In this document: positions 1,346 through 52,472 of the stretch, one piece after another
Layout of the letters: every line of letters starts with the position of its first letter
Numbering within the stretch: the first letter of the stretch is position 1
Assembly: GCA_041739085.1 (NCBI GenBank)
Contig: JBGSON010000014.1
Coordinates: forward strand, 13,410-77,409
Direction: 5' to 3'
Source of the DNA: Candidatus Altimarinota bacterium
GTDB taxonomy: Bacteria; Patescibacteriota; Gracilibacteria; CAIRYL01
Length of the DNA stretch: 64,000 nt
Made by a program: the position numbers and the translations under genes
Notes under the pieces: generated by a model
Seen by the model: the letters and a program-made list of their open reading frames with translations, nothing else
Told to the model about the DNA's origin: nothing
Database searches by the model: none

Positions 1346-2194
1346 TTATTTCCTCATTCTCCTTTTCAGCCTCTTCCTCTCCCGTTCCTGGAGAAACACA
1401 AGGGAACCCGCATCATGAGACGTGATCCCCTCTTCAGGAATCATGTCTTGAAGGAGCGCTGCTTCATGGTCGAACGTTCTCCTTCCTCGCGGAGAAATTT
1501 TCGGCTTCGGACGTTTCTTTCGCGTTTCGTACATCCTCTTCGGAGGCATTTCGAGAAAACGCACGATCCGTGTTCTCGTTTTCTCCACCTGTGAAGCAAT
1601 GGTTTTTCGGGTGATGTGTTCAGACTTCCTCGTAAGATCGGGTGTCGGCGCTTCGGCTTCGGCCTGGCACCGAGCGTACTGAGCGGAATTGAAGCAGATG
1701 GAACCCTGCCATCTCAAGAGTTCGCTGATGATGTTCAACATGGTATTTGTCGGAGTAAATCCAAGTGTTTCTTCCGCGAATGGTATTCTTTCATTGTTCT
1801 CAGTGCTGTAATACCAGTCTCGAGACTCAGTATTCTGTTGAAATCTTCCGAAAAATATCCAGAAGCAGGATTCGATTTGATCCCTCGTCTCTTCACTGCA
1901 TCTTCTAAGCAAAGTTTCCATTCTCTCTTTCATACCCCGGATGGAACGTTTCGTTTTTGCGAGAAAATTCTGCCTCCCTGATTGAATTCTCGCGAGAGAA
2001 TTTTTGAGTTTTTCTCTTTCCGTTTCTACCATCTCTGCGAATTCGGGAGAGAGATCGAACGTATTCGAGAGACGGAAATCAACCTCGATGCCATTTTCAC
2101 TTCGAGTGGCGACAAGGTACGGACGAAAGGTCTCCGGCGTCATGCCGAGAATTCGGTTCATCGTGCTCGCCGGAATTTCGGAAGCGGAATCCAT
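1346..2194 (-). CDS. hypothetical protein with a strongly basic C-terminal tail
   Basis: 282-aa ORF with an ATG start. It fills the gap between flanking genes. No recognisable motifs. Confidence 0.5.
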   Translation of the reverse strand: MDSASEIPASTMNRILGMTPETFRPYLVATRSENGIEVDFRLSNTFDLSPEFAEMVETEREKLKNSLARIQSGRQNFLAKTKRSIRGMKERMETLLRRCSEETRDQIESCFWIFFGRFQQNTESRDWYYSTENNERIPFAEETLGFTPTNTMLNIISELLRWQGSICFNSAQYARCQAEAEAPTPDLTRKSEHITRKTIASQVEKTRTRIVRFLEMPPKRMYETRKKRPKPKISPRGRRTFDHEAALLQDMIPEEGITSHDAGSLVFLQERERKRLKRRMRK

Positions 2195-2215
2195 GGGAAA
2201 AAGATTTTTCAGATA

Positions 2216-3052
2216 TCAGTTCGACCATACCGGGGTACGCTCCTCGGATCGGCCCCGCGCCCTCATCTCATAATGTTTTTCCATTCTCAGAAACGGTGTC
2301 GGGAATCCGATCGTGAACATCCTGCCGTCCACCCCTTGCTCGCGGTACGCCGTTGAACAGAACACTCCGAAGTTCTGCAGAAACCATGTGTGCATATCGG
2401 AAAGCGGCGAATATCGGCAGAGATAAGAATCATCGAGGAATGCCACTCCTCCGAGTTTGAGTGCGCGGGCCACCTCGGAGAGAATCTGAAAGTATCTCTC
2501 CCGATCGCCTCCGTATTCGTTCAGGATAAATTCGAGCACCTGAAACGACTGGAACACATCGACAGAGTTATCCGGAAAAGGAAGCCGCGCGATGTCTCCC
2601 CGGATGGCCTGGGCTCTCCTTCCTTCCGGATACGCGCGGCAGGAGTCTTTCGCGAGACACCAGTCGACATTAAACGCCTGAACATTCTCCGGGCCGTATT
2701 CATCGACGATCCCGTCCGCGCAAACGGATCTCGGCCCTCCTCCGAGATCGACGACCGCGACTTTCGGATCCCGGGTCTTTCTCGCATCCACCCTCCGGTC
2801 GATTTCCAGCCGGAATTTGTTGTTGTATCCGTCACGTGCGTTGAGATATTCAAACGAACGATCCGTGAGCCGGAAAAACGCGGGAGGATCGTCCCGCACA
2901 ATAACCGGCCCCCACAGAGTATTGAGTTCATACCGGAATCCCTCAGGCACGATCACATCCCGTTCCGTGAGGAGCGGAAGTTTTTCAGCAACAGGACAGG
3001 TGAGAGAGTTGCATTCCCGGTAAGTTCTTTCCGTATGCGGTTTTTCGACCAT
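2216..3052 (-). CDS. class I SAM-dependent methyltransferase
   Basis: Motif I VVDLGGGP, then LPFPDNSVDVF and ALKLGGVAFLDD. The track ORF begins at a TTG (3064); the first ATG is at 3052 (MVEKPH...). Confidence 0.75.
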   Translation of the reverse strand: MVEKPHTERTYRECNSLTCPVAEKLPLLTERDVIVPEGFRYELNTLWGPVIVRDDPPAFFRLTDRSFEYLNARDGYNNKFRLEIDRRVDARKTRDPKVAVVDLGGGPRSVCADGIVDEYGPENVQAFNVDWCLAKDSCRAYPEGRRAQAIRGDIARLPFPDNSVDVFQSFQVLEFILNEYGGDRERYFQILSEVARALKLGGVAFLDDSYLCRYSPLSDMHTWFLQNFGVFCSTAYREQGVDGRMFTIGFPTPFLRMEKHYEMRARGRSEERTPVWSN

Positions 3053-3131
3053 GTGTGAAAACAATTGGCGATTATTATTCTATAAATTTACATGTGTGTC
3101 AAACAATGCGCGGCTGGAAAGAGAAAGCCGC

Positions 3132-6100
3132 ATGAGACAAAACTCTGGCTCTTCAGTTTTGTTGACAAACATGTCTTTTGTGTATATCGTTTGCTCCATT
3201 TTTTCATATGTTTTTTTTGCAATGGAGGACTCACGAGATACTCATCCGATTGATACTGATGCAGAGAGAAACGGGGAAATAATTCCGTCGCCGGAACGAT
3301 TACCGGAGCTGGTCATCAAGGACCACCTCCTAAAAACGGAACAGGAGTTCACGGGAGAAGCGGTGAAATTACAGGCATGCGACACCTCCTCCTCTGTTGC
3401 CGTTTTTGAAACGCTCGAGAATTATTTTCGCGCATGGCGGAGGAAACTCCTCATGCGGAATTATCTCAACCGGCAGCATGGCAATATGCGTGAAGCGACT
3501 CCGGAGGGAATGATTCGTTACGTCGAGGAGGCAGGAAATAATACTGATCGATATTGTGGCTATCGCGGCATCCCCGGGGATGATTTTTTCCGCGTAGAAA
3601 TGTTCCCGGCCATCGCAGAACTCGCGGAAACTCCGGAAGATCTTCTGAGGATCGGGAAGGACGCGATTGAGATTCTCAGACTTCTCATGGTGGGAGAGCT
3701 CTCCTATACCACCCACAGCACGACGGACAATCTCCTCTATAAATTCTTCCGAAACACTGGCGTTCCCACAGGATATTCCTGGAATGATGCGACAGGACAA
3801 TTTCGGCATTATTATGCACATTACGAAGCTTCTTTTACCAAAGCAGTCGCGATCCATCAGGGATGGGAATGCGATCGCCATTACGGGGGCAGTGATTATA
3901 CGAATTCCAGAGATGAGATCGATCGGACATTTGTTCCCGTCTATGAAGCGATTCCGGAAAGATGGAGAGATGATGTGTTTGATATTTTTGTGAAATTTGG
4001 AGGCCATCATCATGCGCACCTCTATCTGAAGAAAATCCCCGGAGAAGTAAAATATTTCGTCGATCACGAAAAGGAACACCTCCTCCCCTATTACTTCCGG
4101 CTTCTCCGTTCCACATCGCCCCAGCATGATCTGGAGAATGATGGCGCCATCCTTTTTGATCTTGATCCGCTCGGACAAGAACTGGAAGCGCTTCACGGTT
4201 ATACCGCGCACAGGGAAGAATCACTGGAGTTTGCCGCAGCGGTCATCGGGTGTTATGAATCGTTCGGAAACCGGCACTGGGGAAATGACAAAAACTTTTC
4301 GTTCATAGCCCCGTCGGAGGAAGATAAACAAGAAATGCGCCATGTCGGGTATTTTAATATTCCACGGATCATTGCGTCCCTTGAGAATGACGGATACTCT
4401 CCTGAGGAAATTCGCGATATCCTCGCGCTTCCGGAAAAGTATTCCTGGCTGAAGCATGCCATCTTCCATATTATTGAACACTACGCAGAAATCGATTCGG
4501 GATTATTTCCCGGAGGAGTTTTTGCACTTCTTTCCTATCTCGAAAATTTCCGATCGGCAGAACGCGGGGCGTATAATTTCGTGCAAACCGTTACTGAGAA
4601 AAAACTCCCTGCGTCCGGCCTTGATGAATATCTCGCAGTCGGGACAGAACTGATTCAAAGGCTCGGGAAAAGTGCTAATGATTACTTTGACCTCCGTTCC
4701 TCCGCCTTATTCAGCGTGAAACTCCTCGATCTCCTCCGCAACCCCGGAGTGTTCCGGGATGCGGTGCTTTCGGGATCAACACTCGCGGAAAGTTATCCGT
4801 TTCCAGAAGACGGCATGAGCGGAGACGGGAGATCGACCATACTCGGTGCGTTTTTCGAGCATTACGGCGATCCGCAGTTCGAACGTTTTCTCGAAGGATA
4901 CCGCATCATCATCGCGCGGGCTCATCGGAAAAAGCTGGAACCGAAAGATCCGGAAGATCGTTCCACGCGGGATGAATACCATCTCAGGCGGGATTTCGGA
5001 GAAGCGATCGGTCATTATTCAAGAGTTCAATATCATTTCACGAGAGGAAACCGGAATATCGGCGATGAAAAATCACTTCCGGATATTCCATATGAAGACG
5101 CTTCCCGGATCTGCCTCTTTTTCATTTTTGACAGCAAGACGCACTACATGGACCTCTTCCAGCGTTTTGGAGAACTGGTGCACGACGGAATAGACCACCG
5201 GATTTCAGCCGCACTTGCTGTCTCTCTTACGGATCCGGAGAGGGCATCCTTCCCTGAAATTGAAGGCGTTGAATTCCCCCTGCCGAAGGAAAAAGCGATG
5301 AAGCTATTCGGAGCGATCGTGGAATCGAGGAAAACGGTGACGAGGATCCTCCATGCGGAACGGATGGGGCCGGAACGCGCACTGGAAGCATGTAAACATA
5401 CGCGTTCCTTCATGCGGCCGCCAAAGGAGCGATGGGGATATGACGAAATCATGACCCTCCGAAAGGAGCTCGAGAGACTGGAAGAACTGGAGGCAGATCC
5501 GGAAATAAAGGTACAAATAAATATGGAAAGATTTAAAGCGCTCATCCGTGAAGCGATCAATTTCGGGACTCTGCAAAGGATGATGAATATCGGACTGAGT
5601 CAGGTGAACCTCGATGTCCATGAGACCCCGTTCATGAGAGACTCCAATCCGTATACCCAGATGATCACCGCGGCGGTTTCGCTTTTCGCCGCAGCGGGAG
5701 TGACGGAGATCCCGGGCGTTTCGGAAGGACTGGAAGAGCTTCCATTGCAGAATCCGCTCCTTTCTTCCACACCATCAAAAGAAGAGGAAGATGCCCGTCT
5801 CGCGCTTGTTTTGAAGGATCCGAAATTTGAATCTGCACTCCGAAGAAATATTCACTGTGCGCTTCCGCGAGTGGAACGAATGATCCTTCAGGCGAGAATG
5901 GCAATGCCGGGGCTCATGCCCGTGGGAGGGAAGATCCACACGACGACACCCATGAACAGCGATGTCCTCACCGGGATCCGGAATATTTTCGGACTGGAGA
6001 GTACTCCATTCCAGCTCATCCACGCGAATGATTCCCTCCTCCTCCCTCCGATGCCGAGTGCACTCGAACTCCAGCTCCTCATCCATATTCTGGAAAAATG

Positions 6101-6737
6101 CGGAGTCATTCATTCTGAAAGACCCGAGCTTCAGGTTGCGGTGGGAGACAGATTGCATGAAGATCTTGCCGCTCAGGTCGGATCAGCCGTTCTTCTCGGA
6201 ACGAGCAGGGGGATCGTGTATCCGGATAACGCATTTGCCACGACGCACGACGAGCAAACGGGAACCCGCATCATGGCGTACGATGCCGGAGTGAGAAGAA
6301 GCGGCATGCCGTACGATGTTGCCGGAGCAGAGGGGAGAACCGACATGCTGGGACGGAGACATTACGGAGACATTGGCATTTATCAGCTTCTCGGGACCCT
6401 TGCCGTCCACGAACAGAGAGGCGAAAGATTTGCTCCGCTCATGAGGAGATTTTCCCGTGGGTTTCACGATGTTCTGTCATGTCATGGACTCAGGAATTCT
6501 CTTCATGCATCCGCTTGGATTTTTGATCCGACAAAAAACGGAGATGATCCCGTGAGACATGCTGAGATGGTAAATCGATTCGGGAACGCCTGGATGGAAT
6601 CCATGAATGAGCCGGGATTCGGGATCATCGGAGACGTGAGAAGGCTCATCGAACTCGCATCTCACGAAGTGAGAGCGCAGAGGGAAGATGTTATCGCGGC
6701 AAAACCGGACGAATACGAAGCATTCCTCCGGTATTGA
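3132..6737 (+). CDS. giant orphan protein A (about 1200 aa); its C-terminal module is paralogous to giant protein B
   Basis: Single uninterrupted ORF 3051-6737. Candidate starts are 3051, 3132 (purine-rich gaaagagaaag upstream), 3171 and 3222. With the 3132 start the N-terminus is MRQNSGSSVLLTNMSFVYIVCSIFSYVFFAMEDS, which looks like a signal or anchor segment. I recognise no known family. Confidence 0.8.
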   Translation: MRQNSGSSVLLTNMSFVYIVCSIFSYVFFAMEDSRDTHPIDTDAERNGEIIPSPERLPELVIKDHLLKTEQEFTGEAVKLQACDTSSSVAVFETLENYFRAWRRKLLMRNYLNRQHGNMREATPEGMIRYVEEAGNNTDRYCGYRGIPGDDFFRVEMFPAIAELAETPEDLLRIGKDAIEILRLLMVGELSYTTHSTTDNLLYKFFRNTGVPTGYSWNDATGQFRHYYAHYEASFTKAVAIHQGWECDRHYGGSDYTNSRDEIDRTFVPVYEAIPERWRDDVFDIFVKFGGHHHAHLYLKKIPGEVKYFVDHEKEHLLPYYFRLLRSTSPQHDLENDGAILFDLDPLGQELEALHGYTAHREESLEFAAAVIGCYESFGNRHWGNDKNFSFIAPSEEDKQEMRHVGYFNIPRIIASLENDGYSPEEIRDILALPEKYSWLKHAIFHIIEHYAEIDSGLFPGGVFALLSYLENFRSAERGAYNFVQTVTEKKLPASGLDEYLAVGTELIQRLGKSANDYFDLRSSALFSVKLLDLLRNPGVFRDAVLSGSTLAESYPFPEDGMSGDGRSTILGAFFEHYGDPQFERFLEGYRIIIARAHRKKLEPKDPEDRSTRDEYHLRRDFGEAIGHYSRVQYHFTRGNRNIGDEKSLPDIPYEDASRICLFFIFDSKTHYMDLFQRFGELVHDGIDHRISAALAVSLTDPERASFPEIEGVEFPLPKEKAMKLFGAIVESRKTVTRILHAERMGPERALEACKHTRSFMRPPKERWGYDEIMTLRKELERLEELEADPEIKVQINMERFKALIREAINFGTLQRMMNIGLSQVNLDVHETPFMRDSNPYTQMITAAVSLFAAAGVTEIPGVSEGLEELPLQNPLLSSTPSKEEEDARLALVLKDPKFESALRRNIHCALPRVERMILQARMAMPGLMPVGGKIHTTTPMNSDVLTGIRNIFGLESTPFQLIHANDSLLLPPMPSALELQLLIHILEKCGVIHSERPELQVAVGDRLHEDLAAQVGSAVLLGTSRGIVYPDNAFATTHDEQTGTRIMAYDAGVRRSGMPYDVAGAEGRTDMLGRRHYGDIGIYQLLGTLAVHEQRGERFAPLMRRFSRGFHDVLSCHGLRNSLHASAWIFDPTKNGDDPVRHAEMVNRFGNAWMESMNEPGFGIIGDVRRLIELASHEVRAQREDVIAAKPDEYEAFLRY

Positions 6738-6759
6738 TTTAATACAGATCTGTGCAATC

Positions 6760-7950
6760 TTATCGGCTCATGAATTCCGGGAGGATCTTTCTCGCTTCTT
6801 CCTCACCGAAGAGTTCCGTGAGGCGTTGTCTCAACTGAGAGATAGCAATTCCTTTGTTCGGTCCCGAGAGATCCTCAATCGGTGTCCCCATTTTTTGACT
6901 TACGGCCATGAGGAGACCATTCTGAAATTTTCTTCGGGCTGCATCTTTCGCAGCATTCGTATGTTTTGTCTTATGCCGAGGTTCTTCCGCTTTTGCCTGC
7001 GAGAGAAGTGCTGCGATTTCCGCTCTCATCTCGCCTGATATGGCGCCCCTCAATCCAAGGAATCCCTTAACTCTTTCCTTCCACCCGAGCGGTTTTACGT
7101 CAGGTGCTACGGCTACGGGAGGTGCGGAGGGAGAAACTTCCTCTTTTACGACTGAAGTCGAAGGAGCAAGCGCAAAAAAATCCATATTCTGTATTCGCTC
7201 CGCTTCTTCTCTTCTTCTCCTCTTTTTTTCCGCTCTCTGTTGCGCTTCTGATTGTTTTCCCTGCCCGCTCGTATGTCGCGGCTTTGTCCACAGTGTCGAT
7301 GAAACAGAGGGTTTTGCTGTATCCGGTGGAGTTGGAGGCGTAACTCCTTTCGGCTTCAGTTGTTCGACCGGTTTTTCCGCTGCAGGAGCCGGAAGAGTTG
7401 TTCTTTCCGGTTCGTGCGCCTTTGGAGGAGTCGCATCCACCACCACTCCGTCCACCGTTCTGGTTTCAACGGGTAATGTCTTTGGGGAAGGCGTCTTCGT
7501 TTCCGATGTTCTCTGCGGCTTCGGAGCCGGGACCGTGGCTTCATGAGGAGCATTTCCCGCGAGTTTTCCTTCCACTTTCGGAGTACCGGCTCTTTCGTCT
7601 ATTTCCTCACGCCGATGATCTACCAGCGGGAGCGCCAAGAGTGATCCTGCGGCTCTGCCGATGTGCTCTGCAGTTACTTCGATGACGACGTCTCCATCTC
7701 CATCGCCATCATCCTCTTCTCCAAGATCTAAACCTCTTTCTTCCATTTCATCTCCGAGGAAATCGAGTTCATCACCGCTACCGGCGTCTTCACGGGAGAG
7801 CTCGGCAGGCGGGAGCGCTTTTGGTCCCTCTCGTTCCGGGAATCGCGGGAGAGTCGCTTCCCGTGCTCCGCTTCCGACATGTCGATGGGTTTCACACATA
7901 GTTTTTGGGAAAAATGAAAAATCAATGAACGGCCTCACGGCTTGCTTCAT
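6760..7950 (-). CDS. low-complexity acidic and Pro/Thr/Lys-rich (probably disordered) protein with a helical C-terminal region
   Basis: 396-aa ORF with an ATG at 7950 that overlaps the stop of the upstream giant ORF by 29 nt. Contains DELDFLGDEMEERGLDLGEEDDGDGDGD, long PxxP/TP-rich tracts and a KKRRRREEAER patch. An alternative ATG is at 7899. Confidence 0.7.
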   Translation of the reverse strand: MKQAVRPFIDFSFFPKTMCETHRHVGSGAREATLPRFPEREGPKALPPAELSREDAGSGDELDFLGDEMEERGLDLGEEDDGDGDGDVVIEVTAEHIGRAAGSLLALPLVDHRREEIDERAGTPKVEGKLAGNAPHEATVPAPKPQRTSETKTPSPKTLPVETRTVDGVVVDATPPKAHEPERTTLPAPAAEKPVEQLKPKGVTPPTPPDTAKPSVSSTLWTKPRHTSGQGKQSEAQQRAEKKRRRREEAERIQNMDFFALAPSTSVVKEEVSPSAPPVAVAPDVKPLGWKERVKGFLGLRGAISGEMRAEIAALLSQAKAEEPRHKTKHTNAAKDAARRKFQNGLLMAVSQKMGTPIEDLSGPNKGIAISQLRQRLTELFGEEEARKILPEFMSR

Positions 7951-10900
7951 TTCTGTATTTATTTTCCAGTAAGCTTTCTTGGACTACTCTAACACTTTCT
8001 CTGAGCCAGTCAAATAATTTCCGGGCTTCGAAAATGATCCCCTGTTCTTCCCCTGTTTCGCTGTACCGGTCAGCACAGGCGAAATACGCATCCGTGCAAA
8101 CTCTTACATTTTCATAATGCCTTTTTCCTGCTCCGGTGGTGCTATTTCCATTACCGCAAATCCAGTTTTCATCCAGGACTTGTTCCATTCCATATTTTCG
8201 AAGGATCTGAAGATATCTCTTTTTGAATTCTTCGGCGAAGTCTCCAAATGGACCACCGTATTTTTCCTGCGCGAGAACGGAATGAAGGAGCTGAAAAAGC
8301 TTCATATCATTCGGATGTCTCCGCCCGAGCATATCTGTTCTTCCGGAAAATCCATTCGTGTTGGGGAGGCGCGCATTTTGAGCTCCTGCGTCGTACGCCA
8401 TCATGCGCGCTCCGGTAGATGCGTCATGAGTAGTAGAGAACGCTTTTTCGTCATATTCAACGCCTCTTTCTGTCGCAAGGAGAATGGCACTCCCGAGTAT
8501 CCCAGCTTGATACGGATCGAGTCTTCCGACTCCGCTCACCTGGAGTTCCGGGAATTCGCTGTCGATAACGCCGCTCGCGTCGAGGACGTATAAAATAGAC
8601 TGCAGTTCTTCCGCACTCGGCATCGGAGGAAGGAGGAGGGATGTATTGGCGTGAATCAATCGGAATGAGGTCTGACCAAACTGGAAAAGTCCCCGGAACA
8701 TCTCAAAATGCTCAGTCTCAATGGGATGGAGCACATGGATTTTTCCTCCCACCGGGAGTAGTCCGATGGCATTGTCCCGCCACATCTCAATCGTTTTCCT
8801 CGCCAGCGGGATCGCTTTTTTGCACGCGCTTCTGAAGTCCGAATCGGTGGGCTGAAGGTGTTTTACGGAAATGCCCGCGGGAACGAGTGAACGTCTTCCT
8901 CCTCTCCTCACTTCCACAGCTTTCGGATTGCTCTGGATCGACTCTTCTCTCAGCGCCACTATTGCGGGACGCGATGAGGTTTCCGGTTTCTGCTCAATGG
9001 TGAGTGTCCCGAGAAGCGTTGTTATGGAGAGAGAGGTCGATGTGGCGGATGCAAGCTCCTGATTCTCTCTTGAGTCATTTCCTCTCCCGATATCATCCAG
9101 GAATTTCTGGAATTCGCCTTCTGTCCTCAGGGAGCGGATTGTGTTCCATACTTGAACATAACCGTATATCCCGAGATGCGCCTCAAAAATCCGGTCGAGT
9201 GCATCGTCTGTTAAAAACAGAATCCCCTTGATTCCCTCAGTCAGGATATCTTTTTCCCTTGCGATTGCGGACACCCATTCCTGCAACGTGTCTCCGCCAT
9301 TCTCCCGTTGAGAACGAAGCTTCTGCATCATGCTCCATTCGAGTGTTTTTATCTCCTCGATGCAGGTTGAGACGGCAAGGAGGGTTAAAAAGAACTCTTT
9401 GATCCGGGACTGAAAATTTCCGATGAGAAACGGATGCTGAAGGCTTTCGCGAAAAGCCCGGACATTGATGATGCCGAGATCCTGAAATTCCGCAATCATT
9501 CGGAGACTGTCCGAATACTCCTGTTCACCGAAAAGAGTTTCTCCCATATTTATTTCCGGACCTTTTCCTGTTTTCCAGAGGACGAGATGACAGGAAAGGG
9601 GGAGGGATATCTCATCGCACGTGAGAATTCCGGTTGTTACGAGGAGGTGGAGGGCGACGATGTAATCCATCTGAGAGGAGACGAATTCAAACCGCTTCTG
9701 CCATTTCTCTTCTGTCGGTTCCATATACTCTCTTTCTATATCATGCTGAAGGTATGCTTCTTCTGATTCGCTCCAGCCCACTTTCGTTTCTTCGTCCGCA
9801 TCATCTTTCCAGGAATCATCTTCAAATTCTTCCGGATGAGCTTTCCGATATTCCTCATTTTCTTTTCGCTGTGCAATTTTTCTCTCCCGAACACGCGTTT
9901 CGCACTCCTTTTTGAATTCCTCACCTGGTTCTTCCGTCATCCAGTCAAACAGCCCCATGAGTTCTTTCCACGAAAAAAGTCCCATGATCCAGACATCGAG
10001 GAGATTGGAAATGATCATGATCCGGTCTACCGTTCTTTCCGCGTTCCTTTCCGCCTGAGCATATCTCTCATTTGGCTGACACATGAATGAATGTTTGTAC
10101 TCTGGATCAGGAATGCGGTTGAATTTCTGGAGAAAACGGAGGAATCCTTTGGGGGGACGGAAAGGATCCGGCATTTTGAGAGCAAAAACGGAAAAATAGG
10201 GTGCCGTGACTTCTTCGTCGATCCATCCGCATTCTTCCCGGACCTGCTCATAGAACTCGAGAAAGCCCAGGAGCGGCGTGATTTCTGAACTTCCTCCGGC
10301 GGGGAGTAAATTTTGTTTCGCGACAGGAAGGGCAAGGACACCGTCCAGGTTTGCGGCGAGAAGGCGACAGGTATCGGACCTCACCCTGAGTGCCGGCGGC
10401 GTTTTCGCTCTTTCCGAAAGCGGTTTTCTCAGCGGTTCGACGAGCTCTTTGAGGAGTCCGGACGTGATGGTCACTTCATCTCTTTTTTCCCTTTCCATCC
10501 TTTCTCTACCAAACGCAGCATGGACAAGGCCGTACATTCCCGGGAAATTAAAAACCGCCTCTTCCCCCTCCAGCCTACCGATAATTTCGGTCCTCGGCTT
10601 CTGCCTTTCCATGTGTTTCATGAGCATCTCCGTTGCATCCCCTCTTCTGTCCGATGGGATTTCCTGAAGAAAATCCAGGACGAATTCGAGGAGATTCGCG
10701 GCTCTCCGCGGATTTCCGATCCCGTACATTTTTGTAATGCGGGCGGTAAACTGAACTGATTCAGTTATGGAAAATCCGTCAAGTTCTGCAAGCTTATAGC
10801 CCGCAATCTGATAGGCTTCGAGGACAAACTCAAAGGCAAAAGCGGCGTGAGCCGCGATTTCTGAGACGATTTTTCTGCCCGTTTCGCTGTTCCCAATTTC

Positions 10901-11965
10901 AAGCCTCCCCTGAGTGACCCGGCTTCTTTCTTTTTTTTCATCAAATACTTTTCTCATATCCATATCCTCCTTGAACCACCACGGCTCTTTTTCTCCATGA
11001 TAAATGTCAGTTATAACCTGGAGAGAATAGAGAAGCGCTTCTCTGGATTCGAGCCCCGCCTTTCTCTGATATTGAAAAAGTTCTGAGAGGCGATCGATGA
11101 TGAGTCCATTCTCAAGGCATGGCGGGAGTAATGTGAAACGGCTCATGATGTCCGGATCCAGGATGAGATCCGGCGTGAGGTGTTTTGAGTTTCTCAGAAG
11201 AAAACAGGTGAGCTCAGGACTCAAGAAATCCGGGAAATGTTCCTGCGCCGCGGCTAGAAGATCCCTTCTCTTCTCATCCAATTTGTAATGTCTCGGTGGC
11301 TTCAGTGAGTGTGAAGTTGTGTTGCATACTTTCGGAGCCATGTATGCATATCCGTGTTCCGTGTACGCTGGTGGAAAATCCCCGCCGTGCTGCATCGCCA
11401 TGAGCCACCCGATTGCGATTTGAGTGTGTCTCATCGCCCATTCAAACGGATGCGTTATGGTTTCATCCCGGAGATAGGGTGCGACAAATCTCGGGTAAAG
11501 CTTTGGTCCGATATGTTCTCCCGACCACTCGTCTGACTGGAATTGCGAGTAGTAGAGCCCCTCTCCGATCTGCTCTTCCGTCGGTTTTCGACATCTCCGG
11601 ATTCCGAGTGTGACGGTTGCCGCATCATCGTAAAGAGCCACCGATCCGACCCTCGTGGTATTGGCGCCACGGATTCTCCTCTCAAAACGCTCGATGATGT
11701 CTTCCGCGCTGCAATGTCTTCCGATGTTGGTGAGCATGCGGCCTTCCACTGATGCCCAGTCGTGGTTCAATGTGAATTTACTCCATTCGCACGTGGGGAG
11801 ACGAAGGTGAAGCGGATTTCTTGTATGATGAGAAGCACGAGTCAGTTCATCCTCAAGTTTGCAGTACGGGGAATTGCCAGAATGCTCTCTGATTTTCTCC
11901 TGCGTTCTCTCTTCAACACATTCCAATTCATGTTCCCGCCATTTTGTACCAAGATCATCTTGCAC
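7922..11965 (-). CDS. giant orphan protein B (1347 aa); its C-terminal module is paralogous to giant protein A
   Basis: Uninterrupted 4 kb ORF with an ATG start and an AT-rich upstream region. The C-terminus (GLLPVGGKIH...LIHANTSLLLPPMPSAEELQ...GRTDMLGRRH) aligns by eye with protein A. Confidence 0.85.
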   Translation of the reverse strand: MQDDLGTKWREHELECVEERTQEKIREHSGNSPYCKLEDELTRASHHTRNPLHLRLPTCEWSKFTLNHDWASVEGRMLTNIGRHCSAEDIIERFERRIRGANTTRVGSVALYDDAATVTLGIRRCRKPTEEQIGEGLYYSQFQSDEWSGEHIGPKLYPRFVAPYLRDETITHPFEWAMRHTQIAIGWLMAMQHGGDFPPAYTEHGYAYMAPKVCNTTSHSLKPPRHYKLDEKRRDLLAAAQEHFPDFLSPELTCFLLRNSKHLTPDLILDPDIMSRFTLLPPCLENGLIIDRLSELFQYQRKAGLESREALLYSLQVITDIYHGEKEPWWFKEDMDMRKVFDEKKERSRVTQGRLEIGNSETGRKIVSEIAAHAAFAFEFVLEAYQIAGYKLAELDGFSITESVQFTARITKMYGIGNPRRAANLLEFVLDFLQEIPSDRRGDATEMLMKHMERQKPRTEIIGRLEGEEAVFNFPGMYGLVHAAFGRERMEREKRDEVTITSGLLKELVEPLRKPLSERAKTPPALRVRSDTCRLLAANLDGVLALPVAKQNLLPAGGSSEITPLLGFLEFYEQVREECGWIDEEVTAPYFSVFALKMPDPFRPPKGFLRFLQKFNRIPDPEYKHSFMCQPNERYAQAERNAERTVDRIMIISNLLDVWIMGLFSWKELMGLFDWMTEEPGEEFKKECETRVRERKIAQRKENEEYRKAHPEEFEDDSWKDDADEETKVGWSESEEAYLQHDIEREYMEPTEEKWQKRFEFVSSQMDYIVALHLLVTTGILTCDEISLPLSCHLVLWKTGKGPEINMGETLFGEQEYSDSLRMIAEFQDLGIINVRAFRESLQHPFLIGNFQSRIKEFFLTLLAVSTCIEEIKTLEWSMMQKLRSQRENGGDTLQEWVSAIAREKDILTEGIKGILFLTDDALDRIFEAHLGIYGYVQVWNTIRSLRTEGEFQKFLDDIGRGNDSRENQELASATSTSLSITTLLGTLTIEQKPETSSRPAIVALREESIQSNPKAVEVRRGGRRSLVPAGISVKHLQPTDSDFRSACKKAIPLARKTIEMWRDNAIGLLPVGGKIHVLHPIETEHFEMFRGLFQFGQTSFRLIHANTSLLLPPMPSAEELQSILYVLDASGVIDSEFPELQVSGVGRLDPYQAGILGSAILLATERGVEYDEKAFSTTHDASTGARMMAYDAGAQNARLPNTNGFSGRTDMLGRRHPNDMKLFQLLHSVLAQEKYGGPFGDFAEEFKKRYLQILRKYGMEQVLDENWICGNGNSTTGAGKRHYENVRVCTDAYFACADRYSETGEEQGIIFEARKLFDWLRESVRVVQESLLENKYRNEASREAVH

Positions 11966-12335
11966 GGAGAATTAAAAAGGCGGCTATAATACCATATAGT
12001 AACAATAAGTCAATAATCAGAAGCTTTTGTTCAGGGCTTTGTATACTGTCTCAATTCAGCGCGACCCGCTTGTCGAAAATAATATTATTCTGCAGAAATC
12101 TTAGGATCAACATACATGGTGAGTCTCATGGCGACCATGTTTCCGGCCGCCATAATGGCATTATTGAATTCACATATGAGAAAGTTTTCTTTTTCAAATG
12201 GGAATGTGGGGACTTCTGCCTCCAGGAGTGAGGAGAAGTCAAGAAACATGTAGTAAAAGGTACAATTTCTCCAGTTAATGATGAAAAAAGTTCGAAGAAT
12301 AATGAGGTTGTCTGAAATAATGGAGTATAGTATTT

Positions 12336-14790: not shown

Positions 14791-14880
14791 GGAGAGATGC
14801 CAGAGTGGTCGAATGGGCTCGACTCGAAATCGAGTAGACCCTTGCGGGTCTCCAGGGTTCGAATCCCTGTCTCTCCGCCA
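14791..14880 (+). tRNA. tRNA-Ser (anticodon CGA), long variable arm, CCA encoded
   Basis: Acceptor stem GGAGAGA/TCTCTCC. Anticodon stem CTCGA/TCGAG with loop CTCGAAA. Variable arm GACCC-ttgc-GGGTC. T arm CAGGGTTCGAATCCCTG. Discriminator G followed by CCA. Confidence 0.9.
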
Positions 14881-34844: not shown

Positions 34845-37649
34845 CTATCCCATGAAATATTTCGTGAGAAATCCTCTCCGTGTCTCGCGCTGGACTTCCG
34901 GGATGTCTGCTTTTCCTTTATTTTTATCAGAGGCTTCCAATGCATCGACTTCCCCGTGCAGGATTTGGATCGCCAAGAGACAGGTAAGAAAATCCCAACC
35001 GGCAGCAAAATGATTCTCATGAGGAAGTGATTCCGACATATGGAGTTTTTGAACGTCAATATCAATTCCCTGAGCATTGTCCTGAGACTCAAGAATCACA
35101 AATTTCTCTTGTGAGAAGTTGGGACCGTTCCCGAGTTTCGTGAGATTCCCTGCCGCCTCCGCAATCATTTTCGCAATAATACCAATCTTCATTTTCAACT
35201 GAGGGTGTTCTAGAAAGACAGAATCACCATATTTCCCTGTAAAGAAAGAGAACAGGACGTTTTCAGCGAAGAGATACGCCGCTACATTATCTGCAGTGGC
35301 AGAGATGCCCGCTTCCAGGAATATCATAACAGAGATGATTTTTTTTAACTGATCCCCTGTCGGACGATCTCCATTTTTGACTCCTGCGGCAATAGGAAGT
35401 ACCAGTTTTGCAAACCGAGCAATTCCCGGAACACTCGGAATCTGCGTAAGAAGCGCCCAGAGCACTTCCCTTGCGCTGTGACTCAAGGATCCTTGGAGCA
35501 CTTCCATCTTTCTCATGAGTTCGGATTTTTTCTCCGCGTCACCGGTGAGCACATGATGTCCGTGGGAATCCCTTCCCCTAGATCCTTGGCGTTCACTCGC
35601 TTCCTCACCGAGTCCGGGGATGGGATCCGATAATCCTTCAAGTGACGTCAATGATCGGAGTGCTTCTCCTACGGTGTTCCCGTCCGTCTGCAACAGTATC
35701 TGCCGGATTCTCTCCGAATTCCCCTCTTTCGCCATGGCATCCATCGCACGCGCGCTCCTGCTCTCTCCATCATCAAAACATGTGATGTCTCCAAAGAGTT
35801 CCTCAATGATCTTCTGCGCACGGGTAATCGATCCGAGTGCTTCTTCGGAGCTTCCCGGTGTATCCGGCGAAGCAGCATTCTCAGTGGCGCGCTCTTTCGC
35901 TTCCCGAATGAGATCCTCATCATTCCAGTCCGGATGCCCGCCCCGGAGAGACTCAACTGCCACATAGAACTCATCTGTATGGACTCCCCTCTCTGCGTAT
36001 CCGGCAAAAAGTGAAGCGATGCGATCGGCTTTTGCAGATTGGAGAGCCCCTTCAATATCTCCCATCGCCTGTTCCAGACCCGCAGTATCCTGCGTCTGAA
36101 AGAGTCTGAAGAGATGCGGATAAATCTTCGCATGAAAGAAATGGTCGTTCCAGATATTGAGTTGGGAGACCTTCCTCAGAAAGTCGTCCCTCCGCGCATT
36201 GAGATGATGGAGCGATGCCACTTTTTTACTGATGTAGTCCTTCCATCGGAGCTGAAAACAGCTCGCAGGAATACGCCTGAGGACATCTCTCAATTCTTCC
36301 GCTCCCTGAAGTCCATTTTTTTCAAGGGCTCCAATGACCCGGGTTTTGATATCCTCTCCCTTCATTCTCTGCGCCATACGGACTGAAGGTTCCTGAACGA
36401 CCGTCCGTCCGAGCGCCTGTACTGTATCAATCTGACTCTGGAGAAACTTCCCCGGCATGCTCAGCGGTTTTGCGCGAACTTCGGCAAGCCAAGCGAGATT
36501 GAGCGAGAGGGTAGAGATCTCGGAATAGATTCCACCGATGGAATGGGCCGCAAGGAGAGTTTCAGGACTCCGGTGGTAATTGATGGCAAAATAAATCTCA
36601 GGGGGATCGCCCAGAAGCCATGTTCCCTGAATATTCGCCCCGAGTGTGAGCATGAGTTTCGAAAATCCCCTTGGCCCATTGAAATGCAATTCCGCTCTCC
36701 TCGATGCGGCTTCATGTATTTCATTTCTGTCGATAATACTCTCTCCTGAAGCTTCTTCAGGCGATTTGCTCTCAAATTTCATTTCATGCTCTCTCATTTT
36801 CTCTCTCCATTCCAAAACAGCCATGGCGTACGACTGTTCATAGAGCATGCGAAAAATATCCTTCTTCATCGTATTTGCGAGTGACGAAGAGGTGTATGTC
36901 GTTCCGAGGGGCGCGAGTACTGTTGTCACCGCGGCAATGTGAGCTGTTTTCGTAACGATATCACTATTGATCTTCTCGAGGTATTCTCTCCAAACATCAG
37001 CTCCTTCACTGAGTTCCGGTCTTTTCACGTCCTCATAATTCATCTCCCGGTTCATCATCCCCTCCACTTTGCGGAATATCTCGTGCGGATTCACTTTCAG
37101 TTCTGTCGTGGTGAGATCGGAGAGAAAGACGAGGATGGGGAGCGGGATAAGTCCTCCTTTGATCTCATGGAGTTCTTCCTTACCGAGATGGCCACCTTCC
37201 TTCCCTCCGAATGCTTTGAGGAGCATGACCCTTCCGACAGCAATGAGGTTCATTTCCAGTGCCGACCTCGGCCCGAGATCAATTCCCTTTATCGCGCTTC
37301 CATACCCGACATGACGGACAAAATTCGCGAGCACTGCTGTTGCGGTTCCCCAATCCAGCCATTCCGGAATATCCTTTTCGTGAATCGCTTCATGGGTCTG
37401 CGGTCCGGAACGTTCATGGTCCAACTGCGTTGCATCTGACTCTTTCGGCTCATCCTCAGCCATAACCTCGTTATCCATTGCCGCAACCATGGCTGCTGTT
37501 CCAATACCGAGTTTTGTCATGATCGCAATAAAATCCTGACGGGATATGCGAGCATAGAGAATCCCTTCTTCTTCACCGCGGGGATACTGCTGTTCACCGG
37601 AAACAGGAAAGACCGGAGACCCTTCTGATGCATTTTTTTTGGGCTTCAT
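34845..37649 (-). CDS. large orphan protein (934 aa)
   Basis: Uninterrupted ORF with an ATG start. The N-terminus ..ISRQDFIAIMTKLGIGTAAMVAAM looks vaguely Tat-signal-like but lacks the RR pair. A stretch LGANIQGTWLLGDPPEIYFAI faintly recalls ion-transporter-superfamily permeases. No firm family assignment. Confidence 0.75.
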   Translation of the reverse strand: MKPKKNASEGSPVFPVSGEQQYPRGEEEGILYARISRQDFIAIMTKLGIGTAAMVAAMDNEVMAEDEPKESDATQLDHERSGPQTHEAIHEKDIPEWLDWGTATAVLANFVRHVGYGSAIKGIDLGPRSALEMNLIAVGRVMLLKAFGGKEGGHLGKEELHEIKGGLIPLPILVFLSDLTTTELKVNPHEIFRKVEGMMNREMNYEDVKRPELSEGADVWREYLEKINSDIVTKTAHIAAVTTVLAPLGTTYTSSSLANTMKKDIFRMLYEQSYAMAVLEWREKMREHEMKFESKSPEEASGESIIDRNEIHEAASRRAELHFNGPRGFSKLMLTLGANIQGTWLLGDPPEIYFAINYHRSPETLLAAHSIGGIYSEISTLSLNLAWLAEVRAKPLSMPGKFLQSQIDTVQALGRTVVQEPSVRMAQRMKGEDIKTRVIGALEKNGLQGAEELRDVLRRIPASCFQLRWKDYISKKVASLHHLNARRDDFLRKVSQLNIWNDHFFHAKIYPHLFRLFQTQDTAGLEQAMGDIEGALQSAKADRIASLFAGYAERGVHTDEFYVAVESLRGGHPDWNDEDLIREAKERATENAASPDTPGSSEEALGSITRAQKIIEELFGDITCFDDGESRSARAMDAMAKEGNSERIRQILLQTDGNTVGEALRSLTSLEGLSDPIPGLGEEASERQGSRGRDSHGHHVLTGDAEKKSELMRKMEVLQGSLSHSAREVLWALLTQIPSVPGIARFAKLVLPIAAGVKNGDRPTGDQLKKIISVMIFLEAGISATADNVAAYLFAENVLFSFFTGKYGDSVFLEHPQLKMKIGIIAKMIAEAAGNLTKLGNGPNFSQEKFVILESQDNAQGIDIDVQKLHMSESLPHENHFAAGWDFLTCLLAIQILHGEVDALEASDKNKGKADIPEVQRETRRGFLTKYFMG

Positions 37650-46671: not shown

Positions 46672-49056
46672 TTATACTGGATTTTTTCTTTGATGCTGAT
46701 TTTTTGATTCTTTCCCGCTCTCTTCTTTCTCACCACTCCATTTCCGGATCTTGTCTTCAATTATCTTTCGTTCGACTCCATACTTCTCACGTGAAAGGCG
46801 GAATATTTTTTCAATCGACTCTGCGTCGGCTTCGACGGTTAGCGGAGGAAAGGTCGACGCAGAAAACACCGGCGTCGGAAGTCCGTCGATGAGGAGCCGG
46901 AGATAGATCGCTCCCCTTGAGAGGCTGACGAGATCCGCCGCTTCCACTTTCTCGGAATACTGTTTCATGAGCGCTTCTGCATCCTCAAAACCGACCTGGA
47001 AGGAGATGAGCGTCCCGACGTTCCCGAATATGGCATCCCGCACCATCTCGTTCATCTGAGCGATATACTGATTCGCCATGATAAGCGCGAGCTTGTATTT
47101 TCTTGCTTCGGAGAGGATGGATGCAAAACTTTCGGTGGCAAAATTCTGGAATTCATCGATGAAGAGATAAAAATCCCTTCGCTCGTCATGCGGGATGTCT
47201 GCGCGGCTCATCGCTTCTATCTGAAACTTTGTGATGAGCACTGATCCGAGGAGCATAGAGACATCCTCTCCGATCTTTCCTTTCGAGAGATTGATGATGA
47301 GGATCTTCCCTTTGTCCATCACCCATCGCAAATGAAATTTGGATTTGATCTGTCCGAGGATGTTTCTGAGGATCGGATTTCCGAGGAACTGACCCACTTT
47401 ATTGAGGATCGGGCTGATCCACTCTGTTCTCGTCCTCTCCTGGAGCGGTTCAAACTCATTTTCCCAGAAATCTTTGAGGATCGGGTCATCGAGCTGATTC
47501 AGACACTGCTTTCTGAATGCTTTATTCGTCAGTATCTTCGGGATGGCGAGGATGCTCACGTCATTGCAGTGGAGCAGGGTGAGGATCGTGTTTCTTAAAA
47601 TATGTTCTAGTCGCGGGCCCCAGCTCTCCGCATAGAGCTTTTTAAATACTCCGACGAGACCTGATGCGATCGTGCTCCTCTCTTTTTCATCTTTGCACTC
47701 CATGATGTTATAGGAGATGGGGTAGTCGACGTCAGACGGGTCAAAGTGGATCACATCATTGATACGGCTTTTCGGGACGAAATGGAGCGCTCGTTCTGCA
47801 AGATCTCCGTGCGGATCAATAACAGCGATCCCCTTTCCTGACTGCATGGCATCGAAGATCATGTTTTCGAGGAGTGTTGTTTTTCCCATACCGGTCCTTC
47901 CGATGATGTAGACATGCCTCAGGATGTCCTTCTCCTGGAGTCCGAAGGGGATCCTCCGGGAATGATGGTTAGAAGCTCCAATTTTCAGGATCGCATTCTT
48001 CATGGTAATGGTCGCCGGCGGCTCGATCTTCCGGAATGAACTCCATGTGAGCTTGGGGATTTCCAGTTCACCGAGGGGAACATGGATGAGGCTCGCGAGT
48101 TCTTCCGTGCTGAAAATATTCGATTTCTTCGCCACTTCTCTTGTGAGGAACTCTTCGATGGATTTCAGGGGCTTCATGGGAGTTGGCTCGAGTCTCCCGA
48201 GCTGGGGATCGTTGAAGGTAAGGAGTGATGTTGCTATGGATTGGTATATGGACTCTGCATCCTCCTTTGCTCCTTTTGTCGCTACGAGGATCCTCATATT
48301 CACCCGGAAGAGTTTCTTCAGAAGTTTATCTGCCGCTCGTGAATATTCGAATGAAACGGTGCTTTTTTTCGTCTCATCCCCTTCGACGTTCTGCGAACTG
48401 GAGACTCTCGTCGCTCTCTGCCCTGCTACGACTTCCTTTCCCTTCCGGAATCCGTGGAGCGCCCAGATGAAATAGGCAAGTTTTCCGAACGCATCCTGTC
48501 TCGTATATGAGCGGAGAAAGGGCTTCTCAAGCATCCAGTAGAGTCCTTGTGCTATCGTGATCCCCTTGAGTCCCCTCTTTGCGACTTTTTGGGAACAGGA
48601 GCTGCAGGAGATCTGGAGTGATATGATGTCATCCGGAGATTCGATGTTCGAGAAAGCGGAAAGAACAGGCTTCAGCGTGTCATGGTATTTCTTCATCTCC
48701 TCAAGTCCGAAATCGACATATGACTTGATCGGAAAAACAAAAGACTCGCTCTGAAGGATCTCGCCTCCATAGACCTTCCTTTTCCCAATGCTGAGGAGGT
48801 AGTCTTTCGCTTCATGGATCTCGATCATGGGATATGCCGCAAGGATCTGGCTTCTCAGAAAGCTCTTGTTCTTGGTCGGGACGGAAAAAATAAGCGATAT
48901 GTAATCCTTATGCGCAACGATCTCAAACGAGAAACTGGCACACCGGTTTTTTTCATTTTGAAGTTCGTGGAGTGTCATGAGGAGATTTTCCGCAACTTTA
49001 AGCTCCGAAAGGTTCAGCTTCGAGAGCGTAAGCACGAGATGGGAAAGTTTCTCCAT
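46672..49056 (-). CDS. TraD/VirD4-family (T4SS coupling-protein-like) P-loop ATPase
   Basis: Walker A IIGRTGMGKTTLL, IAVIDPHGDL, Walker B FYLFIDEFQNFAT, LIMANQY. The track start at 49077 is a TTG; the ATG is at 49056. I see no obvious N-terminal TM segments. Confidence 0.7.
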   Translation of the reverse strand: MEKLSHLVLTLSKLNLSELKVAENLLMTLHELQNEKNRCASFSFEIVAHKDYISLIFSVPTKNKSFLRSQILAAYPMIEIHEAKDYLLSIGKRKVYGGEILQSESFVFPIKSYVDFGLEEMKKYHDTLKPVLSAFSNIESPDDIISLQISCSSCSQKVAKRGLKGITIAQGLYWMLEKPFLRSYTRQDAFGKLAYFIWALHGFRKGKEVVAGQRATRVSSSQNVEGDETKKSTVSFEYSRAADKLLKKLFRVNMRILVATKGAKEDAESIYQSIATSLLTFNDPQLGRLEPTPMKPLKSIEEFLTREVAKKSNIFSTEELASLIHVPLGELEIPKLTWSSFRKIEPPATITMKNAILKIGASNHHSRRIPFGLQEKDILRHVYIIGRTGMGKTTLLENMIFDAMQSGKGIAVIDPHGDLAERALHFVPKSRINDVIHFDPSDVDYPISYNIMECKDEKERSTIASGLVGVFKKLYAESWGPRLEHILRNTILTLLHCNDVSILAIPKILTNKAFRKQCLNQLDDPILKDFWENEFEPLQERTRTEWISPILNKVGQFLGNPILRNILGQIKSKFHLRWVMDKGKILIINLSKGKIGEDVSMLLGSVLITKFQIEAMSRADIPHDERRDFYLFIDEFQNFATESFASILSEARKYKLALIMANQYIAQMNEMVRDAIFGNVGTLISFQVGFEDAEALMKQYSEKVEAADLVSLSRGAIYLRLLIDGLPTPVFSASTFPPLTVEADAESIEKIFRLSREKYGVERKIIEDKIRKWSGEKEESGKESKNQHQRKNPV

Positions 49057-49278
49057 GGAAATGGTGTGACTTCTCAATGGTGAAGTATAGCAAATATCCC
49101 CTTTTTTACAATGAAGGAAGAAGCTGCAAGCACAAAACAGAAAAGAGCTTAGAGTGACTTGCTGATAACTACAGGGGGCCTCCTCGGCGCTTGAGTGCTT
49201 GCTCGCTTCAATGCCCGCAGAGTCAAACTCTTCTATGCATCCAACGAGACTTTACGAACTTTACAAACCTTATGAACG

Positions 49279-52077: not shown

Positions 52078-52472
52078 AGGAAGTGTTTTCAGGAATAGGA
52101 AATTCTCCGGCATTCTTTCAAATAAACACTTTTTTCGCAAGAGAAATAGGACGAAAACAAAAAACACAAAAGAAAAATCAGAAAAGAAAAAAGTGAAAAC
52201 TAAAACGGGAAGAGAGAAAACACTGGAGGAATTGACGGCATGGTTTTCTTCTATGTTTTTCGCTTTTTGTCATTTTCTTGTTTCACTTCCATTTTCATAC
52301 CTCCCGCCATGGAATTTTTCCTGTTCCCAGAATGGTCGAAAAAGATGAGCAGCGCATGATCCGGGAAGAATATGAACTCTCAAAAAAAACGGACACCGAT
52401 GAGGAAAAGGAAGAAAACAATTCAGGTCATATTTCTTCTTTTTACTTTTGTGCTTATTCTTTTCTCTTTCTC

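Follow-up and report, generated by a model that had tools for sequence, protein, structure and literature searches.

Giant proteins of a candidate phyla radiation lineage share a conserved C-terminal domain and are mostly paired with small, disordered proteins that begin Met-Cys

We analysed a 64,000-nucleotide stretch of DNA (the window; contig JBGSON010000014.1, positions 13,410 to 77,409, assembly GCA_041739085.1) from a Candidatus Altimarinota bacterium, in which two giant genes, A and B, converge on each other across a small gene. Gene A, at positions 3222-6737 of the plus strand, encodes an A-type giant protein of 1171 residues. Gene B occupies 7922-11965 of the minus strand, begins with a GTG codon and encodes a B-type giant of 1347 residues; its extent agrees with an earlier note on this DNA, and the deposited protein (P0001) is identical. 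The small gene lies downstream of B on the same strand (6760-7899) and encodes a partner protein of 379 residues with conserved ends and a disordered, Pro/Ala-rich middle. As the earlier note had observed, A and B are oriented so that their homologous C-termini face each other, with 22 nt (6738-6759) between the stop codons of A and the small gene. In BLASTP, A 923-1218 aligned with B 1041-1336 at 40% identity over 305 residues (E=1e-54), and nothing beyond the C-terminal region aligned. We describe evidence that B and its small neighbour exemplify a lineage-specific two-gene system, new to description, in which a small co-directional gene, with a product that starts with Met-Cys, lies downstream of a giant gene.

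A Logan contig assembled independently (L001, 10,715 bp) is 100% identical to window positions 1491-12205. A second assembler thus gives the same sequence, so the junction at 6738-6759 is not an assembler-specific chimera; misassembly at 6737-6760 had been named beforehand as an observation that would undermine the locus, and the second contig contradicts it. TGA is the stop codon of 15 of the 34 long open reading frames (ORFs) in the window, and genetic code 11 is therefore the correct reading. The alternative in which UGA encodes Gly, as in Gracilibacteria, was ruled out for the window on the same count. In word-indexed searches A and B together retrieved proteins with 31-37% identity over nearly their full length from independent metagenomes; one was a full-length homologue of A, and only three were relatives of B, at 31-35% identity over most of their length. 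The notion that the giants are chance open frames or the outcome of chimeric assembly is already refuted by these homologues, by the second assembly, by TGA usage and by a confident AlphaFold2 (AF2) model of A, in which 932 of 1171 residues have a predicted local distance difference test score (pLDDT) of at least 70. We found nothing in favour of an artefact, and its probability is negligible. At four related loci from metagenome-assembled genomes (MAGs) of Gracilibacteria/Peregrinibacteria (L013, L015, L018, L019), giant genes appear to be split into two or three ORFs under code 11; at L015, for example, these lie at 2658-5360 plus 5246-6331 and at 6335-8701 plus 8410-9177. Such splits could stem from frameshifts, from errors of assembly or, in some lineages, from UGA recoding (code 25).

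The start of gene A required revision. The long plus-strand ORF that ends at 6737 is real, as previously described, but its proposed start at 3132, giving about 1200 residues, is unlikely. The start is most likely the ATG at 3222, and neither 3132 nor 3051, the first ATG of the extended frame. We prefer this position because the deposited protein of 1171 residues begins there (MEDSRD), the N-terminus of the closest homologue (P0006) falls within about 6 residues of it in the alignment, and residues 1-26 of A are disordered in the AF2 model. The upstream DNA contributes two further arguments: a sigma70-like promoter candidate on the plus strand (3162-3190, TTGACA-17-TATCGT, 10 of 12 positions matching) falls inside the earlier version of the ORF, and a divergent methyltransferase gene that starts at 3052 occupies, together with a near-consensus promoter at 3102-3074, positions 3052-3102. 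With A beginning at 3222, the hydrophobic FVYIVCSIFSYVFFA, which had been read as an N-terminal signal or anchor segment of A, is upstream of the supported start and outside the protein. For gene B, a comparable candidate lies upstream of the GTG start on the minus strand (11986-12013, TTGACT-16-TATTAT with TG, 10 of 12 matches); both promoter candidates come from a consensus scan and are consensus matches only.

The boundaries of the small gene were set in a similar way. The minus-strand ORF of 396 codons that had been reported is present at 6760-7950, but the start conserved in the family, which is also that of the deposited gene call, is its Met18 at 7899, and the protein, beginning MCETHRHVG, is accordingly 379 residues long. 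Translation from 7899 leaves a spacer of 22 nt (7900-7921) after the stop codon of B, and the translational overlap with the end of B proposed earlier does not hold. This spacer is rich in pyrimidines and A and is without an obvious Shine-Dalgarno sequence. Spacers before the MC starts in the window and at L006-L010 are pyrimidine-rich (TCTTTCCCTCTCTCTC, TCTCCCCTCT, AATCTATCTCCT, TTTTTCATTTTTCCCAAAAACT), and a purine-rich Shine-Dalgarno sequence is absent from all of those inspected; their composition suggests an unusual mode of translation initiation or coupling. The extended frame of A opens at 3051-3059 with ATGTGTGAA (Met-Cys-Glu), which resembles the MCE start of the small genes. We rejected it as a genuine start of this type because the divergent methyltransferase gene on the opposite strand has a start codon that overlaps these letters, and the resemblance is probably coincidental.

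Comparison of about 25 small proteins defines an N-terminal motif of roughly 18 residues, M-C-x-x-H-[RKH]-x-h-G ... h-P, represented in the window by MCETHRHVGSGAREATLPR (7843-7899, minus strand). One clade carries MCQxGSRxLE in its place, and the only invariant residue of the partner is Cys2. The opposite end of the protein is a conserved C-terminal helix with an h-P-x-F-[LM]-[KR] motif (…LRQRLTELFGEEEARKILPEFMSR; 6763-6843, minus strand), which recurs at other loci as PRFLKQ, PKFLKE, PMFLKR, PAWMKG and PDFLRQ, and reads …ARKILPEFMSR in the window. Between these ends the sequence is highly variable in length (ORFs of 55-613 residues) and consists to 60-86% of disorder-promoting residues. The window protein had been characterized as acidic and Pro-rich. 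It is indeed rich in Pro and Ala (9.8% and 10.8%) but only mildly acidic overall, with 16.3% Asp plus Glu and 15.0% Lys plus Arg. The small genes at L007 and L008 differ at 132 third codon positions versus 77 and 65 at the first two, with conserved ends and an indel-rich centre; the excess at third positions indicates that the small gene is truly coding.

The conserved unit is a giant gene followed by a small MC-gene on the same strand. Every Logan or Joint Genome Institute (JGI) contig with a relative has a small gene 19-63 nt downstream, in the same orientation, whose product starts MC[EQ]. We then counted, over all fetched loci, ORFs of at least 50 residues that begin Met-Cys within 400 nt of a giant-gene 3′ end: such an ORF follows 24 of 31 unique 3′ ends, against a baseline in the same DNA of 33 MC starts among 517 first-Met ORFs of at least 100 residues, the true partners included. 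At two further loci (L010, L011) the downstream ORF carries a related …HK[HN]L… motif. Cassette spacers mostly measure 10-63 nt, with one of 237 nt at L030/L031. MC partners occur beside A-type and B-type giants alike, and the MC motif therefore tracks the C-terminal domain that the two types share. Cassettes of a giant gene and an MC-gene are found in tandem at L016 and also at L015/L033, and L018/L019 represent two copies on different contigs of one MAG. Gene A in the window lacks an adjacent MC partner; what it adjoins is the 3′ end of the small gene that belongs with B. The convergent order of A, small gene and B, which the earlier note had suggested looking for in metagenome-assembled genomes, was seen only in the window and at none of about 30 related loci, and was discarded as a conserved unit.

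A profile built from six C-terminal domains (A1) was used for an exhaustive search of 1.84 billion cluster representatives at 50% identity. It retrieved 346 proteins at E<=1e-3 and 185 at E<=1e-30. By this measure the C-terminal-domain family comprises at least 346 clusters at 50% identity, and the giants, first taken for orphans, belong to it through that domain. In the 150 members listed the domain is C-terminal, in proteins of 800 to 1,974 residues; shorter entries look like fragments. When the N-terminal bodies of A and B were used in jackhmmer searches, the top 150 members separated into 61 A-type, 56 B-type and 33 unclassified or fragmentary proteins. Judged from these alignments, A and B represent two anciently diverged subfamilies that have only the C-terminal domain in common.

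With each GTDB species represented by one genome, a scan yielded 16 loci, most of them in MAGs assigned to Peregrinibacteria, Peribacteria, Peribacteraceae or Gracilibacteria, and one in an "Altimarinota" genome. One more came from an unclassified dolphin-oral bacterium and another from a 4.8-kb contig binned as Bdellovibrionales, which is probably mis-binned; this contig aside, the named genomes with the domain are all MAGs of the Peregrinibacteria/Peribacteria/Gracilibacteria type. Metagenomes added 14 further loci. The domain was not found in a scan of viral contigs, and a phage origin was ruled out on that result. The family appears to occur only in one branch of the candidate phyla radiation (CPR), that of Peregrinibacteria/Peribacteria/Gracilibacteria. 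Scans with the models of Pfam, NCBIfam, PHROG and PADLOC gave no match to A, B or the small protein; profile searches of the Pfam kind had been proposed at the outset. Pfam scans of 16, 29 and 35 relatives (80 in all) returned nothing recurrent, and searches of the PDB by sequence and profile with A, B and the alignments A1, A3 and A4 yielded nothing beyond low-complexity helical or designed proteins. Searches of the accessible literature turned up accounts of other large, exported, Cys-rich proteins of Peribacteria (PMC4736985) but none of this family. The expectation of an undescribed, dedicated system was thus borne out to the extent that its sequences match no curated family, defence model, phage family or solved structure.

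Structure prediction separates each giant into two parts. The AF2 model of full-length A, built with 35 A-type sequences, has a mean pLDDT of 81. Residues 27-825 are entirely helical in it and residues 853-1171 form an alpha/beta domain. The N-terminal body of A (residues 1-856; 3222-5789, plus strand) contains about 40 predicted helices and almost no strands; by BLASTP and jackhmmer it is unrelated in sequence to the body of B. The C-terminal alpha/beta domain, a candidate for a ligase-like fold, spans residues 857-1171 of A (5790-6734, plus strand), with a hidden Markov model (HMM) match to positions 2-322 of 322; its best non-designed Foldseek matches are 1tt4 and 1r8g of the YbdK family. 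Its counterpart in B, residues 1032-1347 (7925-8872, minus strand), is supported by an HMM match, conservation over 126 domains, AF2 and Foldseek. The AF2 model of the B domain, from 6 sequences, has a pLDDT of 76 and a predicted template modelling score (pTM) of 0.80, and consists of a beta-sheet core with flanking helices, then a C-terminal helical bundle.

Across the alignments the C-terminal domain is the most conserved part of the giants. Over 126 domains, 14 residues are near-invariant: one Lys, two His, one Glu, one Gln, three Arg, two Thr, three Asp and one Trp, or, in B numbering, K1075, H1077, E1120, Q1142, R1148, T1184, R1187, D1192, R1209, T1210, D1211, D1220, W1268 and H1283. This polar and aromatic set fits an active or ligand-binding site better than a mere structural module. 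Two features outside the domain were also apparent. A-type proteins share a conserved hydrophobic helix, TNxxTxxAIxGMSLLxAxGAxxxPG, at about residues 810-824 of A (window positions of about 5649-5693), with Kyte-Doolittle values up to 1.84; a disordered linker separates it from the C-terminal domain, and it may be buried or membrane-associating. In P0030, an A-type relative of 1217 residues, the N-terminal 150 residues or so, ahead of the helical body, contain by eye a GNAT-like motif (HPDLRGQGLGTAVQNRIAKLA); Pfam at E<=0.01 does not support a GNAT identity, and we set it aside.

Structure prediction followed by Foldseek had been recommended by the earlier note, and it returned weak but consistent matches to ligases of the glutamine synthetase (GS) type. 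With the B domain as query against the PDB, gamma-glutamylmethylamide synthetase, YbdK (1r8g, 1tt4) and human glutamine synthetase were among the top matches, along with ACT/TBP-like alpha/beta proteins; the best E value was 0.046. With full-length A, YbdK-family entries took ranks 2-4 (prob 0.41-0.75, E 0.12-0.35). Against BFVD, 17 of the top 50 matches of the B domain were annotated as amidoligase, with a best E of 3e-3 and prob up to 0.90. Since this enrichment is consistent across two paralogues and two libraries, a GS-like carboxylate-amine ligase fold is the best structural lead for the domain, and the models make it a reasonably good bet. The enzymatic-looking domain probably derives from a known superfamily. 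Among the functions suggested beforehand for the locus, that of a large enzyme complex fits best, in that the shared domain weakly resembles carboxylate-amine ligases; the other options fared less well, as set out below.

With these elements in mind, the explanation we favour, tentatively, is that A and B belong to an undescribed family of giant cytoplasmic proteins which, with a disordered partner, form a ligase-like machine. Each giant combines a type-specific, all-helical body of 850-1,500 residues with the shared, conserved C-terminal alpha/beta domain of about 310 residues, and the functional unit would be the giant gene plus the same-strand small gene, usually 10-63 nt downstream. The C-terminal domain would adopt a highly diverged GS-like carboxylate-amine ligase (amidoligase) fold and recognize the N-terminal peptide of the partner. 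Removal of the initiator Met would expose a cysteine that offers a free alpha-amine and a thiol as acceptor, and ATP-dependent acylation or ligation would occur at this residue, Cys1 of the partner. The helical body would act as a scaffold, with the C-terminal motif of the partner as a second docking site, and in the window A would share the partner of B. Enzymes of the YbdK and glutamate-cysteine ligase (GCL) type join carboxylates to cysteine through its amine, in keeping with Cys2 of the encoded protein as the partner's one invariant residue. PafA, which belongs to that superfamily, has a disordered protein, Pup, as its ligation substrate. It is because of these two precedents that acylation or ligation at Cys1 is the most specific hypothesis. 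The parts of the proposal differ in strength: a giant and its partner probably form a new protein-modification or docking system, and it is quite likely that they interact physically, while catalysis on Cys1, argued by analogy, is doubtful.

Several results weigh against this explanation. No Foldseek match is individually significant, the best E being the 3e-3 quoted above, with template modelling (TM) scores of 0.2-0.37 and root-mean-square deviations above 10 Å. Profile comparison gave no support to the structural lead. We assembled an alignment (A5) of 25 sequences, out of 54 relatives of the phage tf amidoligase, in which the motifs GxExE, DGSLR, RxSxHxH and GxxEFR are invariant and include residues E32/E34/E36, H98/H100 and E190/R192. 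In hhalign comparisons, made with sequence profiles without secondary-structure scoring, A3, A4 and the 126-sequence domain alignment matched A5 with a probability of 0.1-0.2%, A1 matched E. coli YbdK at 0.1%, and comparison with the phage tf amidoligase alone was null. ExE, HxH and the other amidoligase hallmarks (GxExE, RxSxHxH, GxxEFR) are absent among the invariant residues of the domain. A, B and 80 relatives showed no match to Amidoligase_2 (PF12224) or GCS2 (PF04107) in scans in which the positive control, phage tf gp21, matched PF12224, and relaxing the Pfam threshold to E<=10 for 35 A-type relatives produced neither these two families nor anything recurrent. On the side of the partner, His5 of the MC-x-x-H motif is missing in the MCQxGSR clade, and 7 of the 31 loci, gene A in the window among them, have no MC-gene.

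On these sequence comparisons the domain must not be filed under Amidoligase_2 or GCS2. The invariant set nonetheless holds six potential metal ligands, three Arg and one Lys, which numerically meets the need of a GS-type ATP/metal site, and catalysis therefore remains conceivable; if the domain is related to amidoligases, its active site would have been remodelled. Amidoligase_2 proteins such as Pseudomonas phage tf gp21 provide the most frequent fold matches and have an alpha/beta core of similar size. They differ in showing no sequence or profile similarity, in the motifs GxExE, RxSxHxH and GxxEFR that are missing here, and in context, the present domain forming one protein with some 1,000 residues of helical body and having a disordered partner in place of an amidotransferase. 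Iyer and colleagues reportedly proposed in 2009 that Amidoligase_2-type enzymes are carboxylate-amine ligases that modify peptides or proteins. In phage tf (L023, 8935-11740) a class-II glutamine amidotransferase gene directly follows the Amidoligase_2 gene. Class-II glutamine amidotransferases use an N-terminal Cys as nucleophile after removal of Met, and the phage gene order, possibly an evolutionary remnant, parallels that of a ligase-like domain and an MC-protein.

Enzymes of the YbdK/GCS2 and GS types (1R8G, 1TT4, 9QUR, human GS) were the top non-designed PDB matches of two independent models. The differences are again considerable, with E values of 0.05-0.4, TM-scores of 0.25-0.31 and the null result against E. 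coli YbdK; moreover, YbdK/GCS2 enzymes are stand-alone proteins of about 370 residues with small-molecule substrates, whereas here the domain is carried on a giant protein. The actinobacterial Pup-PafA/Dop system offers another likeness, in that it too pairs a ligase of the GS/GCL superfamily with a small disordered protein that is encoded at the same locus and recognized through a conserved terminus. Pup, however, has about 64 residues and is ligated via a C-terminal GGQ or GGE, while the present partners (55-613 residues) are conserved at the N-terminal Cys end, and neither GGQ nor GGE terminates any of the partners whose C-termini are listed. The ligase-like domain is here carried by a giant protein, Pup-ligase had no Pfam match in A, B or the scanned relatives, and no proteasome or Mpa genes are nearby, the neighbours being the methyltransferase, TrmB and a cation-efflux gene.

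A scaffold or docking role for the giants is nearly as likely as the ligase explanation. The domain, whether a degenerate ligase-like fold or an unrelated alpha/beta fold, would in that case be a non-catalytic adaptor that only binds the N-terminal peptide of the partner, which we regard as a serious possibility; the helical bodies and the long disordered linker might build a structural or tethering assembly in the cell, held by a metal clasp of Cys and His-His. The missing metal- and ATP-binding motifs of canonical amidoligases and the null hhalign results speak for such a role. Helices make up the first 70-80% of each protein, for which designed helical-repeat proteins are the only matches, and weak ones, the partner is disordered and linker-like over a range of 55-613 residues, and its Cys2 and His5 could form a metal site together with the two invariant His of the domain. 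Against this, the 14 near-invariant polar residues, among them three Arg, three Asp, Lys and Glu, exceed what a peptide-binding groove usually needs, and a clasp that involves His5 is difficult to reconcile with the MCQxGSR clade, in which this residue is not conserved. The order of the genes recalls another class of systems, the polymorphic toxin cassettes (Rhs, CdiA-CT/CdiI), in which a large protein with a C-terminal enzymatic domain is encoded just ahead of a small co-directional gene. The likeness extends to genomes with several copies and to tandem duplications (L015, L016, L018/L019), and the C-terminal domain might then be a toxic enzyme that the downstream protein neutralizes, as in a toxin-immunity or toxin-antitoxin-like pair. 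We consider this improbable. Conservation is inverted, the C-terminus being constant and the N-terminal bodies variable; there are no trafficking, secretion or repeat domains and no Pfam toxin/immunity or PADLOC match; the partners, in contrast to immunity proteins, which are folded, are long and disordered and show conservation only at the two ends; gene A persists without an adjacent partner; and the family is absent from the viral contigs scanned.

The earlier note had also raised a surface or episymbiont-interaction function, and it is conceivable that the giant, the small protein or both reach the cell surface or a host, for example through type IV secretion system (T4SS)-like machinery, with the small protein as co-effector or secretion adaptor. 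Two genes for T4SS- or conjugation-like ATPases are present on the minus strand of the window, a VirD4/TrwB-type coupling-protein homologue (VirD4/TraG-like; 46672-49077) and a TraG/VirB4-like P-loop ATPase (52473-54617), and a T4SS pilin gene lies near one related locus. Several partners end in Arg/Lys-rich tails (…GHHRRRR, …GVDRRR, …KGLKSRR) that resemble C-terminal T4SS signals. The organisms are, in addition, presumed symbionts (PMC4736985). Export is nevertheless unlikely. In a Kyte-Doolittle scan of 150 members, 29 had a 19-residue hydrophobic peak above 1.6 and none of the 29 peaks was at the N-terminus; the supposed anchor of A lies upstream of its start; secretion genes show no conserved linkage to the family across loci; and the basic tail is missing from many partners, including that of the window (…PEFMSR). 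By their sequences the giants look cytoplasmic, which is their probable location. The large extracellular proteins of Peribacteria carry signal peptides, and Cys makes up about 7% of their residues (Anantharaman et al. 2016, PMC4736985). A and B resemble these Cys-rich giants in lineage and in filling much of a small genome with very large genes, but have no signal peptide by the Kyte-Doolittle criterion and contain only 0.8-1.4% Cys.

A more elaborate version of the ligase explanation is conceivable, in which the domain activates a carboxylate, possibly that of the giant's own conserved C-terminal tail (…LMKY, …LLEF). The partner Cys would attack it to form a thioester, and an S-to-N shift would then join the disordered tail to the giant scaffold. 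Protein-protein ligation of this kind is very unlikely; if it did take place, it would be a previously unknown enzymatic conjugation of proteins at an N-terminal cysteine, in a single CPR lineage. More generally, if the domain is a ligase aimed at the N-terminal cysteine, it would represent new modification or conjugation chemistry on the GS/Pup-ligase theme. Even if the domain is non-catalytic, the cassette would point to a lineage-specific cell-biological structure and provide a clean marker for genomes of the Peregrinibacteria/Gracilibacteria type. CPR genomes are tiny, yet members of this lineage devote 4-9 kb, sometimes in several copies, to a cassette that is covered by none of the annotation libraries searched.

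Elsewhere in the window, SecDF (49825-52167) adjoins both of the ATPase genes described above. This T4SS-like apparatus is of a type often seen in CPR genomes and is unlinked to the giant-gene cassette at other loci. A further large ORF of 934 residues (34845-37649, minus strand) is without a Pfam match at E<=1e-3 and does not include the domain that A and B share at their C-termini. A tRNA-Ser(CGA) at 14791-14880 on the plus strand was the sole RNA gene detected across the 64 kb.

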